Virus record (IMG/VR): IMGVR_UViG_3300044825_000698
Location: 35,045-99,044 of that record
From: a virus
DNA: 64,000 bases
Strand: one strand, 5' to 3'
Below, piece by piece: positions 15,019 to 53,251 of the stretch. A program made the translations under genes and the position numbers. The number at the start of each line of letters is the position of its first letter. The stretch's first letter is position 1. The notes below the pieces were generated by a model. The model saw only the letters and a list, made by a program, of their open reading frames with translations, did not search any database and was not told where the DNA came from.

Positions 15019-16572
15019 TCAGAAGAACGGGTTCTCTGATACTGAGATTACCGGCATTGTATCCTGAACCGACATCGCACATGCGATGGCTAGACTGTCT
15101 GGGTAGTCGTCGAAAGCGCCCCGCTCCTCTGGTGCGGCGGCTAGAAGGTATGGTCCTCTGTACACCTTCTCCAGGTCGGACATTTGCTGGTTAAAACGCT
15201 TCCACGGACGGGTACGGCGAGCCTTGGAGTGACCAGGAACAATCAACTGGTCACGCTGGATGAGTTCCGTCAGATGTACCCAGCGTTCATTCTGGGCCTT
15301 AGCGTCAGACGACACTGGTAGAACCTCTACCTGGGGCAGGAGGATCTGTAGACGTTCGGCTACAGCGCCTCCAACACCTTGCGAATCCACACCAATACGT
15401 AGTACATCATAATTGCGGATAAAATCAATGATCTCAAAGTACTGTTGCTCCCACTCTTGGTTATTGATTTCCAGCCAGTTAAGAACTCGGTGTTCGTAAA
15501 AACCGAAGCCGTCAGGGTGGTCCCAGTCGACCCACACGACAGTGGCCACGGTTGAGTCATTAGACCGGGCTACGTCGATACCAATGACAACTGGGGTCCG
15601 CCACCACTGTTTGATAAGGGCCATAGATGGGTCGTACATCCGCTCCAGGCGTTCCTCGGTAACGAACATTCCCTTCTCTAAGATCCACTTATTACAATAA
15701 GACATCATGAACTCGTCTGAGTCCTCGCCAATACGTACCTTCTCTTTGGCGATGAACTTGGCGTAGTTCTCATTGTACTTGGCGGCTGTGCGCCAGTCGT
15801 ATTCAAAATGAGCCTGACGGTGGCCCCTCTTGTGGTTTACGTCCCGGCGCTTGTTGTACTGGATCATCTTGTAGAAATAGGATTTATTCCTAGTTGCCGT
15901 ACCAGTAAGGGCAATCGATCCGTTGTTGAACGCCAACATGGGCTTGATCGACTTGGTGATCATGAACTCGTCAGCCTCTTGGGCCTCGTCTACTAGAACG
16001 AAGTGATAGGTCTTGGACTCGATCTTGGCCTTGGGGTTACAAGTCTGCATACGACACAGAGAACCGGAGTGTTTTAGGGTGATTATTCGACCCTTACCAC
16101 GGGCACCACCAGAGGTGGCCTTGTCATCGATTTCAGGGTCCAGCAAGAAGTCCATGGCATGGTCGCTGGTCAACTTGGTGACGATACGGCTAAATACCGT
16201 GTCGGCTTGGTCTTCGACAGGGGCGAATACACCGCACCAGAAGCCCTTCTCAAACTTGCCCAACCAGGTTGGATACACCTTGGCCAACTTAGGAAGGATG
16301 ACCATCATGGAGGCCATGACATTAGACAGAACTTCGGACTTACCCGACTGTCGGGTCGCCACGAGAGTTACCTCTTCACCATCGCCTAGAACAATCGACT
16401 CGATCAACCGATAGGCGATGGGCAACTGGTACGGGAACAGGGTTACGTCACAGAACTCTTCCGTAAACAGTATGAGTTTCTTAACAAGAGCATCAACAAA
16501 CTCTGCTGATGTTTCGTCCAGTTCCTCAACCTGGTCTTCTGGAAGAAGTTCTTCGTCTAGAAGATCATCCAT
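15019..16572 (-). CDS. terL: Terminase large subunit
   Basis: Walker A RQSGKSE, Walker B VLVDEAQ, nuclease GIDVA and FDDYPDSLA. Confidence 0.95.
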   Translation of the reverse strand: MDDLLDEELLPEDQVEELDETSAEFVDALVKKLILFTEEFCDVTLFPYQLPIAYRLIESIVLGDGEEVTLVATRQSGKSEVLSNVMASMMVILPKLAKVYPTWLGKFEKGFWCGVFAPVEDQADTVFSRIVTKLTSDHAMDFLLDPEIDDKATSGGARGKGRIITLKHSGSLCRMQTCNPKAKIESKTYHFVLVDEAQEADEFMITKSIKPMLAFNNGSIALTGTATRNKSYFYKMIQYNKRRDVNHKRGHRQAHFEYDWRTAAKYNENYAKFIAKEKVRIGEDSDEFMMSYCNKWILEKGMFVTEERLERMYDPSMALIKQWWRTPVVIGIDVARSNDSTVATVVWVDWDHPDGFGFYEHRVLNWLEINNQEWEQQYFEIIDFIRNYDVLRIGVDSQGVGGAVAERLQILLPQVEVLPVSSDAKAQNERWVHLTELIQRDQLIVPGHSKARRTRPWKRFNQQMSDLEKVYRGPYLLAAAPEERGAFDDYPDSLAIACAMSVQDTMPVISVSENPFF

Positions 16573-35964: not shown

Positions 35965-37404
35965 TTATTCAGGTCGCAGTGCTGAAGCGGTGAAGATTAA
36001 AACTCCAATTAGAACAAACAAGATTGAAAGTACTGCTAGTGTTTCTGAACTACTCCCAGTGTTGGGCAACGTAACTGCCGACGTGGTAGGGGTTGCCGAT
36101 GTAGTTGGGGATTCAGGGACAGTAGTTGTGGTTACTGTGCTCCACACAGCCACTAGATCAACATCGCTGGCGACGAAATAACGCCATACGCCATCTGAAG
36201 GATCTACTAGTAGAGGTAGGTCGAGGGGCGCTGTTGCTGACGATGTGGCCCATCCACCAAACACAAACCCGTCCTTCTTGCACTCCTCAGCGCCTGGTAG
36301 GTAGGTGTACCCAATGAAGGATGCTGAAACTGTGGCTGACTTTGGCTCGCCCCCGATGAGGCATGTACCATCACCAATATTGGTGAGTGCTTTGTAAAGA
36401 GGTACAACCGGTGTTGGAACAGTTGCCGAGGTCGTAGTGGGGGCGGCAGTTGTTGGAGCCGATGTCGTTGGAGGAGCGGTCGTTACGACTGGCGCATTTG
36501 GGTTGTTAGGTGCTACAGCACCGAACGTAGTTCCGTTTTTGGTTGTTCCACCAGGAGCGCTGTCTACTAGAAGAACCGGTGACAAAGCAGTATCACCCAA
36601 GTTGAAGACCGAGAAACCGAGGGTGTACGTGCCGGTTACAGATACCTCGTATGTCGAAATCTGCCAGCCGGTGGAACCGTAGGTGCCAGTGGAGTAATCA
36701 CCAGTACCTGGGTTGGTGAACCCTAGAAGAGCGTAGTTACCAACACCATTATTGACTTTGATGGTCGGGGCTGGGTCTGATCCGGTGTATACAAGGGATG
36801 TGATCGAACCATCATTGAACGGCACATAATCAGTACCGATGTAGTTCCACGCCATCGTGTAGACGGTATTTGCGCTCAAAGTCACCGAACGGGTGATCCA
36901 GGCGGCGTTAGTTGGATTACCACTACCGTTGCCTGAGGCGGTTGCCTGTTGAGACAGCAGAGTCTTGATGGACGCACTTTGGGTGGTGGTAAGCCCCAAA
37001 GAAGTCATGGACGAATCAAAGGACACTCCACCAGCGGGCTGGAGAAGCCCAGCCTTACTGCCATATGGCGAGAAAGTCCAGGTAGTAGGCTGTACGGCGG
37101 GCGCGTAGTATGGATTCGGCTGGCCACTGACGGTTGGATTTCCAACCGCATTGTGAGCCGGGGCATTGAACGTAACGGCCCCACCGATGATGTTTACACC
37201 AGTTCCACTACCTGTAATCGTGGTCCCGTTTAGAGTTCCCGTCTGAGAACCAATGTTCCAGCCTGAGAAAGAGCCATCCTCAAAGTCAATGTTGGTTCCA
37301 CTAACGGAATCAGCATGGGAGTCTCCTGCTAGGGCAAATGACATTCCCAATGTTATGGAGGACAGTATGAGTACATTACGGAGTCTTAAAAGTGGTTTAT
37401 GCAT
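35965..37404 (-). CDS. Secreted surface protein with LPXTG-type sorting signal
   Basis: Signal peptide; C-terminal LPNTG followed by a hydrophobic segment; KDGFVFGGW repeat-like segment. Confidence 0.75.
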   Translation of the reverse strand: MHKPLLRLRNVLILSSITLGMSFALAGDSHADSVSGTNIDFEDGSFSGWNIGSQTGTLNGTTITGSGTGVNIIGGAVTFNAPAHNAVGNPTVSGQPNPYYAPAVQPTTWTFSPYGSKAGLLQPAGGVSFDSSMTSLGLTTTQSASIKTLLSQQATASGNGSGNPTNAAWITRSVTLSANTVYTMAWNYIGTDYVPFNDGSITSLVYTGSDPAPTIKVNNGVGNYALLGFTNPGTGDYSTGTYGSTGWQISTYEVSVTGTYTLGFSVFNLGDTALSPVLLVDSAPGGTTKNGTTFGAVAPNNPNAPVVTTAPPTTSAPTTAAPTTTSATVPTPVVPLYKALTNIGDGTCLIGGEPKSATVSASFIGYTYLPGAEECKKDGFVFGGWATSSATAPLDLPLLVDPSDGVWRYFVASDVDLVAVWSTVTTTTVPESPTTSATPTTSAVTLPNTGSSSETLAVLSILFVLIGVLIFTASALRPE

Positions 37405-37612
37405 GCACTAAGTATAACAAACGTCATTGTTTATATAAAAAGAATAGAGACGATGCTATGACTTTTGTCACAAGGCAAAACAACAGTTATCCACAGGTTT
37501 CTTATCTAAATAACGTCTTATAGATATAAGAACTGAAAACTGCACGCAATGTTATATACGAACTCCCCATATTACCGGGTATAAGCCGTTATAGGGTTTA
37601 TAAATACAAACG

Positions 37613-39711: not shown

Positions 39712-40114
39712 TTGGACGCTCTTCATTCTCACGATGTGTATGCTCGGGCAAGCCACTACGACGTGGGGCCTCATCGGAATAGGTAATCGGTACAAAAGTT
39801 GTGTCCTCGACCGAAGCCACCCGGTGGAACCCATCTCTGATCATGGGGTTTCGCCCGGAAGTTTCTAAACGTACAGGATTAACTATCCCTTCACGCATGA
39901 CTGACCTATACACACCGCTTTTGATGGCCTCATCCTCTTTACGACTCCACAAGGCTTCCTCAGGAGTACGTGGGCGCATGAACCCTTCTGGGTCCCGAAC
40001 CATTGTCCGGTCAGATACATCTTCGACCGTTAATTCGTTCGGGTGAACAGGAAGGCTCTTGATCCACTTGGCTGGCATGAACAACTGGTCGTTTAAATGG
40101 TGAAATGCGGCCAT
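39701..40114 (-). CDS. ParB/Srx N-terminal-domain-like protein
   Basis: SVMREGIVNPVRL.....IRDGFHR. Confidence 0.6.
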   Translation of the reverse strand: MAAFHHLNDQLFMPAKWIKSLPVHPNELTVEDVSDRTMVRDPEGFMRPRTPEEALWSRKEDEAIKSGVYRSVMREGIVNPVRLETSGRNPMIRDGFHRVASVEDTTFVPITYSDEAPRRSGLPEHTHRENEERPNGR

Positions 40115-41443: not shown

Positions 41444-41854
41444 TTACGCCCGAAATTTACGTAACTCGCCCAACTTCATATCTTGTCGTTTGACCGTACG
41501 TGATTCGCCCTCTTCAGGGAAATGGGTAATCTCTGTGACGTGGATCATTGCTCCGGGTCGTACAGTCCGTTCGCTCTCATATCGTCCACGAGGATCGTCC
41601 GAACCAATGACCCCCCACCGGTCCTTGACATTTTCCCACTCCTGAGAACCTTCTTCTATGATGTGGCGACGGTGGACCTTGGCCCCAACAATGGTTCCTG
41701 GAGACCCTTCCCAGTCAACCCCAGCAAAATCACGGGCCACGTCGTAATCGGTCGTCCAATGCGGCCCCATACGGTGCTTATCCAAGGTTTCAGGGGTGGC
41801 TTCCTGTAGACCACGGTACAACTGTATGAACTGGGGGCCGTTAGGGCGAGGCAT
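41444..41854 (-). CDS. ADP-ribosyltransferase-like protein (R-S-E type)
   Basis: LYRGL...HWTTD..VARDFA...ESE.TV. Confidence 0.6.
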   Translation of the reverse strand: MPRPNGPQFIQLYRGLQEATPETLDKHRMGPHWTTDYDVARDFAGVDWEGSPGTIVGAKVHRRHIIEEGSQEWENVKDRWGVIGSDDPRGRYESERTVRPGAMIHVTEITHFPEEGESRTVKRQDMKLGELRKFRA

Positions 41855-41930
41855 ATACCCATCGTACCACTCGGAATAGGGCTATTACGCAATGGGGTGG
41901 TGGGTGGGTGGTGCTCTCTACCCCCGACCC

Positions 41931-42115
41931 TGTGGATAACCTGTGGATAACCATGGGGGGTGTGCCATAGGTCACACCACACCGTGTGACAAATGTCACA
42001 TGGCCCTGTGGATAACTCCCTCATTCTGTGGATAACTACCCTGTGGACAGGCTGTGGATAACTCGGGCCGAATGGGGCCGATCCTGTGGATAAGTGCCCT
42101 GCTGGCTGTGGATAC
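41931..42115. promoter_or_regulatory. Array of co-oriented DnaA boxes
   Basis: TGTGGATAA at 41931, 41942, 42007, 42027, 42053, 42085; near-matches at 42042 and 42107. Confidence 0.85.
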
Positions 42116-42576
42116 AGAAGTCCCACGGTAACCGGCGTTTGCCCTGCTCAGGGGCACATTCCGTTATCCCCGGTAACCACTTTCAGCCCGTCCTCTGGGT
42201 AAGAGGGCATAACGGGTCCAGAATGGGGGGTGCGTGGCTCTCCGGGCCTCTGAGGGGGCAATGGTGGCAACCGTGACAAATGTCACATCGACCCTATGGT
42301 TGGGCCTATGTGACAAGTGTCACAGGTGATCGGGGGATGGGGGTAGGCGTGACGCTGGTCACTACCCCTGGGATACTTGCTATCAGCAACTAAATACTTG
42401 CTCACTACAACCTTCTCCCCGTACACGCGCACGCGCATACACGCACGCACGCATACGCACGCCCGTACGCACGCACACGCCCACGCCTGTTTCCTCTCCC
42501 TCCCCAAGACGCATACTTGCTGAGTACAACCTTTGGGCCGATTTGGGCGACCCTGGGTAGTGTGACGGATTTCACA
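41961..42576. promoter_or_regulatory. Cluster of CRP/GlxR-like boxes (TGTGA-N6-TCACA)
   Basis: Perfect at 41985, 42309, 42561; variants at 41961, 42272, 42348. Confidence 0.7.
42420..42480. repeat. Alternating purine-pyrimidine (ACGC)n-like tract
   Basis: Uninterrupted RY alternation 42420-42462, resuming 42464-42480. Confidence 0.85.
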
Positions 42577-42691
42577 CCTTTATGACTCGTTGTTTGCCCG
42601 GCAGTGAGGGCAGACTGGGGGGGTCGGAGCAGACAGCCCCGACACCGGGTGTCTCACCGTGAGACAGCCGGGCAACTCAGAAAGGTCAGCC

Positions 42692-43402
42692 ATGTCCACC
42701 ATCACCACCACCCTCGTGACCCCTGCGGTCACCCTCTCACCCGTCGAGGCCACCGTCACCTCGGCCAAGAAACTGACCCAGGCCGAGCGCACCGTCGCAT
42801 CGGCGTTCGCACACTGGGCCAGCGTGTCCGATCAGGCCGACGAGGCCACCCTGCTCCTGACCGTTCACCTGCTCGCCAACGAGAGCGTGTCGGCTCGCCG
42901 TGCGTCCGAACTCGCCACCGAGGTGCTGGGCACCAGCCGTGGCTGGTCCAAGGACAAGGTCACCGCCGTTCGCTGGACCGCTCCCGTGTGGGAGTTGCTG
43001 GCCTCGCCCGATCACCAGGCCGACGACTACCTGCTCGACGAGGATGGCGAGCGTCTGACCGTGGCCGACCTCATCTCCGAGGTTCGTACCATCGCCAGCG
43101 TCATCGGCTCGGCCAAGGTCCGTGAGGCTCTCGCCAGCGTCGACGAGCCGTCGGTCGTGGCATACATCTCGGCCCTGCGTGACGCTCGGGATGCCAAGGC
43201 TCTCGGTGCCGAGAACACGCCCCCGGCAGGCGACGAGGCCGACGACGAGGCCGAGGCCGAGGCCGAGACCAAGTCGGGCTGGACCCTCGACCACGCCCTC
43301 GCCACGGCCATCGCCAAGGCTCGCAAGGAGGGCATCTCGGATGCCGACATTCTCGCATCGTTCGCCCTGGCGGTCACGACCCTCAACACGGAGGGTGTGT
43401 GA
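42692..43402 (+). CDS. Hypothetical early protein
   Basis: GAAAGG RBS; high GC at third codon positions. Confidence 0.7.
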   Translation: MSTITTTLVTPAVTLSPVEATVTSAKKLTQAERTVASAFAHWASVSDQADEATLLLTVHLLANESVSARRASELATEVLGTSRGWSKDKVTAVRWTAPVWELLASPDHQADDYLLDEDGERLTVADLISEVRTIASVIGSAKVREALASVDEPSVVAYISALRDARDAKALGAENTPPAGDEADDEAEAEAETKSGWTLDHALATAIAKARKEGISDADILASFALAVTTLNTEGV

Positions 43403-44180: not shown

Positions 44181-44909
44181 ATGCCCATCACACCGCCCAG
44201 CCCACGCCAACTCGACTACATCCGCACCCTCGTCACCGAGCGTGTCCAGGCCATCACGGCCCTGGCCGACGACGAACGCAAGCGTCTGCTGTCTCAGCCT
44301 GAGACAACCAGGGATGCGTCGAACCTGATCGACCGCCTGCGTCGACTGCCTGCCGACCCCAAGCAGGTCGACGCTGGTGCCCAGGCCAAGATCGACGGTC
44401 TCGTGGCCGTGCTCGATCAACTCGATGCCCGTGACCGTTCGTTCGCCAGCGACCTCGTACGGTCGTTCAGGCAACGGGGCGACCTGTCCGAACGCCAGTG
44501 GCCGTGGGTCGAACGGCTCACCGCCAAGGCCACGGCTCCCAAGGTCGAGCCTGCCGAGCCGGGCCTCTACATGGTCGACGGGAACATCGTCAAGGTGTAC
44601 CTGACGCAGAACCGCAGGCTCGCCACCAAGGTGCTCCACGCCAACGGCTCGCACGGCTCGTTCTCGTACTCACCGGGCTGGCTCGCCAAGGTGCGCCCCG
44701 AGCATCGGCTCACCGAGGAGCAGGCCCGTGCGTTCGGCAAGCAACACGGCTTCTGCTGTGCGTGTGCGCTCGATCTCGATGACGACCGTTCGCTGGCGGT
44801 CGGCTACGGCCCGGTCTGTGCCAAGCGGTACGGCTGGTTCTACCCATCGGCCAAGCAGGCCAGCGAGATGCTCAACCGTCCCGTCGATCTAGCAACCGTC
44901 TCAGCCTGA
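44181..44909 (+). CDS. DUF6011 domain protein
   Basis: C-terminal CCAC...L.D..S...GYGPVCA. Confidence 0.75.
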   Translation: MPITPPSPRQLDYIRTLVTERVQAITALADDERKRLLSQPETTRDASNLIDRLRRLPADPKQVDAGAQAKIDGLVAVLDQLDARDRSFASDLVRSFRQRGDLSERQWPWVERLTAKATAPKVEPAEPGLYMVDGNIVKVYLTQNRRLATKVLHANGSHGSFSYSPGWLAKVRPEHRLTEEQARAFGKQHGFCCACALDLDDDRSLAVGYGPVCAKRYGWFYPSAKQASEMLNRPVDLATVSA

Positions 44910-44933: not shown

Positions 44934-46478
44934 ATGACCATCATCGACACCAAGACCATCGTCGAAGACGATGCCATTCGTCTCTACTACGAACTGTCAC
45001 GCAAGTTCGGTTGGCAGGGGACATTCTTCACCCGTGGTGATGCCAGGGACTCGTGGGAGAACTACCACGAGCAGACCAAGCCGTTCACCGACGAAGTGTG
45101 GGAGACCGTGCGTCAGTCGTACTACTGGCGCAGGGCGTTGCCCGACAACCTGACAGCCGAGGGACTGAGCATCGTCAACGATGCTGTGTCCGAAGCCATC
45201 TACCCTGTCTCAGCCTGAGACACCAACGAAAGGAACAGCAATGACCACCACCATCACCATTCCCGTCGAGATCGAGAACCTGCTCGACTCGATTCTGTAC
45301 GCCGGGGCGTTCTCGACTTACTCCTGGTATTCACACCTCGCCGTCGCCAATGACGGTCGCCGGGCCTCGGTCGGCATCTACACCAACGAGGGACACACGG
45401 CCACGGTCAGTCGTATTCTCGACGCTCGCACCCTGGCCGAGACCATCGAGCGCATCGTCAGTGAACGACTGCTCGGATGGCAGGATGTGCTCCACGGTGC
45501 TCGCAACGACGACTTCGATGCCAACTCGGCTGACACCGTGCTCCAAACCGCCGTGCTCGGCAAGGTGGTGTGGGGCTGATGGCAACGCTCACCAACATCG
45601 ACAAGCCCTGCCGTGGTCGTGACTGCGACCAGCAGGCCAGCGTCTACGCCATCGACCCAGCCCCCGATGGCTGGGGCGACTGGTACTGCGACGACTGCCA
45701 GCCCAGCAACTGGTGGGTCATCGACACCATCGAACGAGTGTCTCAGCATGAGACAGAGGGAGACAAGTAATGGAAGCGAGTGATGTCGTTGCCCTGGACT
45801 GGCTACACAGCCTGTTTCAGGAACTGGAAGATCAGGGAGTGGAGTTGCCGATGGGCGACTACCACTATGTGTACGGACTCATTGAGAACATCAGAGACAG
45901 GGAGAGCAAGTAATGGAAACCAAGACCTACACCGTCGACATGACCATCCGTGTCTATGTCGAAGCAACCTCGGACGCAGAGGCACAGGCCAAGGCCGTGG
46001 ACCTCTACGCAGGGTGGTCGCCCGATGGCATCGGGCAGTACGGGAATGTCCTTTCCCGTGAAGGAATGTGGTACCTGTGCGAGCACGGCGACGAGACCGA
46101 TGCTCAGGTATGGGACCCCTACAACAAGGAGAGTGTCTGAACATGGGAGCCAACTTCGCCCACGACCTCGCCAACGAGGACTTCGGTCTGTCGTTGGAGC
46201 AGGCCGTCACCATCCACCTCACGGCCAACCATTACCCGGCTGTGCCGACGATCATGGTGCCGGTGTGTGTCCAGGCCATCACCTGCGCTGACGGTGGTGC
46301 GTGGGACGACCTCGTAACCCTGCCCGATGGTGTCTCATACCGAGACAGCAACAAGGCTCCGGCCTACGCCATCATCGAGGCGTACCACCTCGGTGCGTTC
46401 CTCAGCGACGACGAGGACTACAACGACTACGGGTGTGGTAAGTGGGGATGCCAAGAGTGCTACCCCGATGCGGAGTAG
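44934..46478 (+). CDS. Run of six small hypothetical genes (44934-45218, 45241-45579, 45579-45770, 45770-45913, 45913-46140, 46143-46478)
   Basis: RBSs and overlapping stop/start codons. Confidence 0.6.
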
Positions 46479-51705: not shown

Positions 51706-52000
51706 GACAACCAAGTGTGGTGAGGGGGTACGGCCTGTCAAGCCGTGTTCTCAAACTGCGTCGAAGTAGCGAAGCGTGATGCGAGCCGAGCCGAGGGCCA
51801 TCCCCGAGGCGATGAAGCCAGCCAGCCAGCCGAGTGAAACAGCAGGCGCAACCTCACCAACGTCATGCTGGACGGGCAAGCGTTCCAACCGTGCGCTCGT
51901 CCAGCGTGACAAACTTCACACAAAGCATCCGCCCGGTTTGACCAAACACCCCCTATCCTGGATAACAAGCAAGTCAGTCACACAAGAAAGGACCACCACA

Positions 52001-53251
52001 ATGACCACCGCCAAAGCCCTCCGTACCGGACTCCCGGTCATCATCAACGCAGGCCCGTACAAGGGTCTCAATGCCATCGTCGTCGATGCCACCGTCTTCC
52101 CTGACGGCCACGAGCATCAGCGCAAGGTCGTCGTCGACATCGACGGTGTCGGCCAGTCGTACATCATCCCCAAGCAACTCGACCTCGTCGGTCACGTCCG
52201 TCCGTCCGTCGCCCCGGTCGTGCCGTCCGTCCCCCGTGTCGAAGTGTCTCAGCGTGAGACGGTCTCGATCTCCGTCCCCACGAAGATCACCTCGCTCGAC
52301 GACCCGGCTCTCGACGAGTACCGCCCCCAGCGCAAGGGTCTCCTGCGTGAGTACGTCTCTCGTACGCTCGCTGGCGGTCACAAAGACATCGAGGTGCTGG
52401 CCTCGTACTGGGAGAACCGCCGTGACGGTTACGCCACCAACGTCGGCCTCGTGGGCGACACGCAGTCGGGCAAGACGATGCTCGTCGAAGTGATGTCTCA
52501 CGTCATCGCCAAGAAGATGGGCCTCAGCAAGCCCCTCCCGGTGTTCACCCTGTCGGGTTCGTCGGCCATCACCGACCACGACCTGTTCGGTCAGTACCGC
52601 CCGACGCTCGTCGATGGCGAGGAGCGCATCGTGTGGATGGAGGGTCTCGTTGCCCTCGCCTGCCGACTCGGTGGCATCCTGTACCTCGACGAGGTCAACG
52701 CCATGCCGGGCAACGTCACCTCGGCTCTCCACCCGGTGCTCGACGACCGTCGCCAGTTCGTCAACATCCGCAAGCCCGTCCCCGATGGACACGGCGGTTA
52801 CAAGCCCGAGGTCGTCAATGTCTCGACCGACCTGTGGGTGCTGTGTACCTACAACCCCGGCTACGCAGGCATGGCCAAGACCAACGAGGCGTTCGCCAAC
52901 CGCTTTGAGTGGCTCACGTGGGATTACGACGAGGAAGTCGAGAAGCGTCTTATCAAGTCCCCGGCCATCCGTCTGCTCGGCCAGGCTCTCCGTGTCGCTC
53001 GTGACAACCGAGCGGTGACGACTCCGGTCGGCACCTCGGCTCTCCAGCGACTGGAGCGCAACATCGCCAGCCTCGGCCTCGACTACGCCGTGTGGTCGTT
53101 CCTCGGTCAGTTCACCAGCAAGGCCGAGAAAGCCAAGGTCCAGTCCATCATCGACGAGCGTTCCATCTACGCAATGCTGGAAGCCGAGGTCGACGCAGAG
53201 TCCCGTGTCGAAGATGTCCAGCCGACCGACGAACCCATCAACTCACTCTGA
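52001..53251 (+). CDS. MoxR/CbbQ-type AAA+ ATPase
   Basis: GDTQSGKT, LYLDEVN, TYNPGYAG, AFANRF. Confidence 0.88.
   Translation: MTTAKALRTGLPVIINAGPYKGLNAIVVDATVFPDGHEHQRKVVVDIDGVGQSYIIPKQLDLVGHVRPSVAPVVPSVPRVEVSQRETVSISVPTKITSLDDPALDEYRPQRKGLLREYVSRTLAGGHKDIEVLASYWENRRDGYATNVGLVGDTQSGKTMLVEVMSHVIAKKMGLSKPLPVFTLSGSSAITDHDLFGQYRPTLVDGEERIVWMEGLVALACRLGGILYLDEVNAMPGNVTSALHPVLDDRRQFVNIRKPVPDGHGGYKPEVVNVSTDLWVLCTYNPGYAGMAKTNEAFANRFEWLTWDYDEEVEKRLIKSPAIRLLGQALRVARDNRAVTTPVGTSALQRLERNIASLGLDYAVWSFLGQFTSKAEKAKVQSIIDERSIYAMLEAEVDAESRVEDVQPTDEPINSL

Follow-up and report, generated by a model that had tools for sequence, protein, structure and literature searches.

A conserved array of co-oriented DnaA boxes between the divergent arms of an uncultured myovirus: a possible docking site for host DnaA apart from the replication origin

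DnaA is known as the initiator of chromosomal replication, as a transcription factor and as a helper at some plasmid and phage origins. What a dense cluster of DnaA boxes does in the genome of an uncultured phage is the question raised by the locus described here. It lies in a window of 64,000 nucleotides, the final 64 kb of a 99,044-bp IMG/VR record whose contig ends overlap by 127 bp; this end repeat looks like a circular-assembly overlap and not a mapped terminus. A preliminary description of the window had found six perfect boxes and two near-matches within 185 bp, all in one orientation, and had offered three functions for them: a host-DnaA-dependent phage origin, a datA-like sink and a genome-end or injection-control element.

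A pattern search of the window recovered the same positions. The exact box TGTGGATAA occurs six times on the plus strand (41931, 41942, 42007, 42027, 42053, and 42085), and two weaker boxes lie on the same strand, TGTGGACAG at 42039 with two mismatches and TGTGGATAC at 42107 with one. The orientation is thus identical in eight of eight boxes over the span 41931-42115. Because the flanks of the boxes are conserved too, the repeat unit is better written as C-TGTGGATAA-C, that is, the 11-mer CTGTGGATAAC, and pattern searches together with the flanks delimit an array of six exact CTGTGGATAAC-type units and two weaker ones at 41927..42117 (+). In E. coli oriC, the strong boxes R1 and R4 also have this C-flanked context. 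By chance, 0.42 copies of TGTGGATAA are expected per 64 kb, and seven exact copies were reached in 0 of 100 shuffles. The only other exact box in the whole 99,044-bp genome is on the minus strand at 37487. This lone box (GTTATCCACAGG, 37487-37495) stands 14 bp from a copy of the palindrome described below (37457-37472), and the pair (37457..37495, -) sits in an AT-rich, promoter-like gap upstream of the leftward gene 35965-37404.

The start-to-start spacings of the boxes are 11, 65, 20, 12, 14, 32, and 22 bp, and six of the seven deviate by no more than about 1.5 bp from a multiple of 10.6 bp, which places the boxes on approximately the same side of the helix. The gaps between boxes range from 2 to 56 bp. 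Same-direction arrays with 2-bp gaps (11 bp from start to start) are typical of DnaA oligomers, and the six exact and two near boxes, phased as they are, make a cluster fit for supporting such an oligomer, as in an oriC-type origin.

The array is located in a non-coding gap of 804 bp (41855-42658), as delimited from the ORF lists with frames chosen by GC3. The gap separates a leftward from a rightward arm, which bears out the earlier placement of the array at the point where the two arms diverge. The first gene of the leftward arm (41444..41854, -) encodes a protein of 136 aa with no family match, and 77 bp separate the start codon of the gene from box 1. The arm opens with small enzymes giving weak ADP-ribosyltransferase and ParB-N matches and continues with endolysin, fibres, TerL (15019-16572), portal, major capsid, and sheath; by its sequence, the phage is a myovirus. 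The rightward arm begins with a gene whose putative start is at 42659 (42659..43402, +) and further contains a DUF6011 gene (44181-44909), the second SNF2 helicase gene of the genome (46509-48014), and a gene for an AAA_5 ATPase (51776-53251). The GC content of this arm (42.6-60 kb) is 60-65%, compared with about 50% elsewhere, with GC3 near 0.8 in the window between 42600 and 58000, and the jump starts at the array gap. A further palindrome, YGTCTCA-N3-TGAGACR, has its first copy at 42645-42671, and this copy shares bases with the GTG that is the putative start codon of the first rightward gene. Elsewhere in the genome, a 480-aa protein (L121:238-1680, -) matches the PHROG family of queuine tRNA-ribosyltransferases (E 2e-38) and has 70-74% identity to its counterparts in relatives; this DpdA/TGT-like enzyme suggests 7-deazaguanine modification of the phage DNA.

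As well as the boxes, the gap holds several other elements. The palindrome TGTGACAAATGTCACA (TGTGAC-N4-GTCACA) lies inside the array at 41985..42000, 6 bp before box 3, with a weaker copy at 41961-41976. Two more copies follow at 42272-42287 (one mismatch) and 42309-42324 (exact), and a fifth, TGTGACGGATTTCACA, is found at 42561..42576, about 85 bp upstream of the first rightward gene. This palindrome, a match to the CRP/GlxR-type core TGTGA-N6-TCACA, is grouped with the DnaA boxes and is also present as single copies upstream of other genes (37457 and 49707). Its binder could be the O-like protein of the phage, which carries a Crp-type helix-turn-helix, or a CRP-family regulator of the host. 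Between the start of the leftward gene and box 1 is the motif GAATAGGGCTATTACGCA (41874..41891), which also adjoins the boxes in the complete relative G002 and has a related form in the complete relative G001. The G-rich tract GGGGTGGTGGGTGGGTGGTG (41894..41913, +) lies directly left of the array, in the spot where an origin would have its AT-rich element. On the other side, ATACTTGCT...CAACCTT occurs three times (42373, 42394, and 42513) around an ACGC-rich low-complexity tract (42420-42490). Since relatives have the core (A/G)YTTGCTATCA upstream of their rightward arm as well, the stretch 42373..42533 (+) is a candidate early promoter region. A promoter and terminator scan of the gap gave one weak sigma-70-like site and no terminator, and a search of the gap against Rfam gave chance hits only, on the ACGC-rich tract.

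We asked whether the array is conserved. Megablast of the region against cultured phages gave no match at the DNA level, and a search for relatives through the two genes flanking the gap found none. Relatives were reached through the SNF2 helicase, which led to 28 IMG/VR loci with 52-63% identity, and only three of the loci fetched (L125, L129, and L146) extend to the arm junction. All three have clusters of DnaA boxes there, mixed among TGTGAC-N4-GTCACA palindromes. Whole-record pattern searches found four co-oriented boxes at the arm junction of G001 and two boxes in the fragmentary relative G003. G002 has nine boxes at its arm junction, seven of them co-oriented as GGTTATCCACAGG, and its rightward genes at the equivalent junction are GC-rich by eye, unlike those on the left side. 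In G002 an element of the CTAGTCACTAG type stands in for the operator palindrome, yet box and flanks are unaltered. This constancy of the box beside a changing operator is consistent with a conserved host protein, DnaA, at the box and a lineage-specific protein at the operator. With respect to the arms, box orientation is reversed in both G001 and G002, and L129 has boxes of both orientations; because of this variation, a strictly directional mechanism is not conserved. A repeat cluster in L123/L124 was considered as a counterpart of the array and rejected, as it proved to be coding.

The relatives also bear on the possibility that the array is a mis-assembled fragment of a host oriC, which the preliminary description had named among the findings that would overturn its interpretation. 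This possibility is excluded by the box clusters at the same junction in relatives, by the phage genes to the left and right of the array, where neither dnaA nor dnaN was seen, and by the lack of a PF08299 domain in the genome.

The same array is present far beyond this family. The 22-mer doublet CTGTGGATAACCTGTGGATAAC was found in at least 119 viral contigs with GC contents from 33% to 66%, whereas the reversed control gave none. At least four exact boxes within 300 bp are present at 59 of the doublet loci; of these 59 arrays, 56 fall between genes and roughly three in four are strictly co-oriented, with spacing peaks at 11-12, 22-23, and 32-34 bp. The array-bearing contigs share almost no proteins with the window phage. 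A Pfam tally of 95 ORFs flanking the arrays returned phage genes only, including Sf6-type small terminase (7), AT-hook (6), GP88 (5), T7-type terminase (3), and RusA (3), and neither dnaA nor dnaN was among these 95 ORFs. Doublets of the variant box TGTGGACAA were found in 64 contigs with a median GC content of 49%, compared with 45% for the CTGTGGATAACCTGTGGATAAC contigs; this slightly higher value gives weak support to the idea that the arrays track a host-specific variant of the box. The densest array among the IMG/VR contigs inspected is at L202:5040-5319, with 20 co-oriented TGTGGAYAR-type boxes in 280 bp. Array-like doublets of DnaA boxes were also seen in ssDNA microviruses (PQ006258, PQ007401, MG945484, and MZ089785), in a stretch with no annotated gene. 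In the window phage, a 98-aa protein of the family phrog_7595 (L122:2867-3160, +) is encoded next to a Dps/ferritin-like gene; homologues with 54-81% identity lie within a few kb of DnaA-box arrays on eight otherwise unrelated IMG/VR contigs (L007, L019, L020, L051, L069, L099, L110, and L119).

The boxes were named from the canonical consensus, from which the box preferred by the host may differ. The identification as canonical DnaA boxes is supported by the conserved 11-mer and its helical phasing, by conservation in relatives that have different operators and by recurrence in unrelated phages. We therefore consider the array, from these sequence comparisons, to be a conserved set of high-affinity sites for host DnaA, to which DnaA probably binds. 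Alternatively, the binder of the repeats would be a protein of the phage itself, and their likeness to DnaA boxes would be a coincidence. Related phages do carry other short motifs in their terminal or control regions, for example TGCAAAG in the BRock-like phages. However, the identical 11-mer occurs in phages that share almost no proteins with the window phage and the reversed control has 0 matches, the box is constant while the neighboring operator varies, and no DnaA-like DNA-binding domain (domain IV, PF08299) is encoded anywhere in the genome. We regard a coincidental phage-protein site as very unlikely.

The cluster could be expected to serve as an origin, as was first proposed. In this interpretation, DnaA would load the DnaB-type helicase of the phage at the array, which would be the primary or a second, auxiliary origin; perhaps the O-like initiator, bound to the neighboring palindromes, would assist the loading. 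The eight co-oriented, phased boxes recall the DnaA-oligomerisation region of oriC, and the phage has both a DnaB-like helicase and a DnaC/IstB-like loader. Origins of plasmids and phages such as P1 oriR join iterons to DnaA boxes, a combination that also speaks for this interpretation. However, the phage has a complete replication system of its own. Its replication operon encodes RecA, PolA, an SNF2 helicase, a DnaG-like primase, the DnaB-like helicase, and the loader. The first protein of the operon, 438 aa long, carries a Crp-type helix-turn-helix and matches PHROG families of the type 'replication initiation protein / O-like' (E 3.5e-8). The check for an initiator elsewhere in the genome, suggested with the preliminary description, was therefore positive. 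The O-like gene holds four palindromic 22-bp iterons, AGTGTCACCCGTGACACCCC, with spacings of 34, 22, and 22 bp, which adjoin a tract of 33% GC with two copies of the short direct repeat TCTCTATTATC. Iterons and an AT-rich tract inside the initiator gene are the classic layout of the lambda origin. This lambda-type origin (L122:1770-1961, genome 21770-21961) lies before the window, about 55 kb from the array on the other side of the genome. The initiator genes of G001 and G002 keep equivalent iterons, ATAGGGTCA-N4-TGACCCTAT, and the replication layout (initiator with origin, then loader, DnaB, primase, and PolA) is conserved in relatives.

The array itself, in turn, lacks what an origin of this kind should have. 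A 40-bp GC scan of the gap confirmed the earlier observation that no AT-rich unwinding element is adjacent: none was found in the gap, and the minimum of 42.5% GC is at 42360-42419, 260 bp past the last box. The IHF consensus (WATCAANNNNTTR) has no match in the gap. The GC skew tracks the gene strand and the high-GC arm; the switch in strand and composition at the array was seen, but no independent origin signal beyond it. Considering that the phage has its own O-like initiator and an origin with iterons and an AT-rich tract, a DnaA-dependent origin fits poorly, and the array is probably not the primary origin of the phage. The gap palindrome (GTGACA-N2-TGTCAC) and the iterons (TGTCAC-N2-GTGACA) share a hexamer in everted order, and this is the sole basis of the residual case for an auxiliary origin. 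Primary or auxiliary, a DnaA-dependent origin at the array seems to us unlikely.

A phage with its own replisome would not need DnaA, a fact that is consistent with a different interpretation, also among those first proposed: a datA-like sink, in which the amplified phage DNA titrates or inactivates host DnaA and blocks new rounds of host replication. We infer that a cluster of high-affinity boxes, multiplied by the phage copy number, could rival the chromosomal sites. However, the gap has no IHF site of the kind used by datA, and a sink would need neither the coupling to operators nor the fixed placement at arm junctions or terminal repeats. The strict co-orientation and the phasing suggest an architectural complex instead. 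A sink is less likely, and we consider it rather improbable.

Cultured phages place such arrays at genome ends. In Klebsiella phage ZK1 (OK625527), 12/13 exact boxes are found at 19-198 and 45566-45745, in both terminal repeats, and in Shigella phage A7 (MK685668), 8/8 exact boxes are found in the terminal repeats at 22-135 and 39903-40016. Arthrobacter phage EvePickles (OP434463) has a mixture of TGTGGATAA and TGTGGACAA less than 100 bp from its right end, after an HNH endonuclease gene. Other matches in Klebsiella, Vibrio, and Arthrobacter phages are likewise at the record ends. The occurrence of the same arrays in the terminal repeats of T7-like phages is a further argument against an origin; no use of DnaA is known in T7-type replication. 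No paper on the co-oriented CTGTGGATAAC arrays at the ends of ZK1, A7, and EvePickles was found.

Whether the array of the window phage may also be terminal can be judged from its nearest cultured relatives, the BRock-like myoviruses of Streptomyces, which have 60% identity in the major capsid protein and 47% in TerL and a colinear structural module. Direct terminal repeats are present in LuckySocke (344 bp, L164:1-344) and GiJojo (197 bp, L166:1-197). Both repeats are situated in a divergent non-coding gap that is some 25 kb upstream of TerL and immediately precedes the first gene of the TerL arm, and both are packed with a short TGCAAAG/CTTTGCA-type motif. The array in the window, 25.4 kb upstream of TerL, likewise immediately precedes the first gene of this arm. 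No clustered DnaA boxes (TGTGGAYAA) were found in the BRock-like Streptomyces phages, so that the analogy is one of topology and not of sequence homology. By this analogy, the array gap would be the most likely place for the terminal repeat of the window phage. Among the three functions first proposed, a genome-end or injection element has the most comparative support. Two observations speak against an end here: the 127-bp end repeat of the contig has the look of a circular-assembly overlap, and the contigs of the six relatives run through the array without a break.

Taken together, we suggest that the array is a docking site for DnaA in a control or terminal region, where it gates promoters or handles a DNA end, and not a replication origin; we put the probability of this reading at roughly 45%. 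The sites, their phasing and conservation, the separate lambda-type origin, and the identical arrays in terminal repeats of cultured phages are observed, whereas we infer that DnaA binds, that the array is terminal in this phage, and that the complex acts in regulation or on a DNA end. Host DnaA would occupy the six consensus boxes and spread over the two weaker ones, its molecules lining up head to tail along approximately one side of the helix. This oligomer would stand beside a protein bound to the interleaved TGTGAC-N4-GTCACA palindromes. At the head of the late arm, the complex could gate the divergent promoters according to the DnaA status of the host; alternatively, it could hold, mark, or protect the DNA as a genome end at entry or packaging. 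Both outcomes are compatible with the data and may even coincide. Promoter gating is supported by the single palindromes upstream of other genes and by the lone pair of box and palindrome at 37457-37495, and it has a precedent in the host CtrA sites of phage terminal or gap regions (PMC9437464).

A more speculative generalization, possible but still doubtful in our view, is that many unrelated lytic phages recruit host DnaA to genome ends or control regions and that DnaA is a general, as yet undescribed host factor of infection. The phages concerned would be T7-like, SP6-like, and T5-like phages, actinophages, and the myovirus family of the window phage. A literature search for DnaA boxes in non-coding or terminal phage DNA found only a preprint on T5 (bioRxiv 10.1101/866236), and one for DnaA-box clusters, titration, and terminal repeats in phages found only that preprint and a study of CtrA (PMC9437464). 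What is new here is the array in an uncultured family of 90-100-kb myoviruses, apart from the lambda-type origin of that family and tightly coupled to lineage-specific operators. Cultured Klebsiella and Shigella phages have identical arrays in their terminal repeats. If the generalization is true, DnaA could serve as a cap or anchor for the DNA that enters, as a mark of the concatemer junction, or as a timer that sets early and late transcription by the replication state of the host, and in the family of the window phage it would act jointly with an operator-binding protein of the phage. The T5 hypothesis becomes a general question that can be tested directly, as cultured phages and dnaA mutants are at hand. 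As a caution, clusters of DnaA boxes in phage genomes should not be annotated as origins by default.

The known systems with which the array can be compared differ in what they share with it. The DnaA-oligomerisation region of oriC, datA, and similar box clusters have consensus boxes with R1/R4-type flanks. The array in the window differs in that it has no unwinding element, no IHF site, and no dnaA/dnaN neighborhood, and in that its replicon has another initiator and another origin. The BRock-like repeats of LuckySocke and GiJojo agree with it in the divergent gap about 25 kb upstream of TerL and in a dense array of a short motif, but the motif is TGCAAAG-like and not a DnaA box. In ZK1 and A7, which belong to the Autographiviridae, and in EvePickles, the likeness extends to the sequence itself: the same CTGTGGATAAC 11-mer, co-oriented, with spacings of 11, 21, and 32 bp and 4-6 exact copies together with degenerate ones. 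The arrays of these phages are 20-200 bp from mapped genome ends, whereas the window phage is a circular assembly with the array between divergent arms and among operator palindromes.

Sites for another host regulator behave in a comparable manner. In alphaproteobacterial phages, sites for host CtrA cluster in terminal repeats or gap regions, with support from EMSA, and these sites regulate phage transcription (Mascolo et al. 2022, PMC9437464). As in the window, sites for a master regulator of the host cell cycle are found in a non-coding terminal or gap region of a phage. The regulator is a different one, however, and DnaA sites had no positional bias in the phages of that study (PMC9437464).

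T5-like phages have eight DnaA boxes in their untranslated injection-stop region (bioRxiv 10.1101/866236), for which the author argues against a role as origin and offers a role in end handling as a hypothesis (Davison 2020, bioRxiv 10.1101/866236). Transferred to the window phage, a T5-type injection stop would mean that membrane-associated DnaA grips the boxes as they enter and pauses the transfer until early proteins release it. As in the T5-like region, eight boxes with palindromes lie in an untranslated gap, here of 804 bp with five palindrome copies and further repeats, and small ADP-ribosyltransferase-like and ParB-N-like enzymes are encoded right beside it. However, transcription of the genes for these small enzymes, which form the head of the late arm, leads away from the array, and the T5 model is itself a hypothesis. 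In T5, moreover, the boxes are paired 3 bp apart inside the IRC/IRD inverted repeats of a terminal repeat of roughly 10 kb, whereas those of the window phage, a myovirus unrelated to the T5-like phages, are co-oriented and phased with gaps of 2-56 bp. An injection stop of the T5 type is in our judgment a long way from probable. The likeness to the T5 region lies in about eight boxes, repeats, palindromes, a large non-coding stretch, and a lytic phage with its own replication genes, and for a docking array of DnaA in a control or terminal region it is the closest published case.
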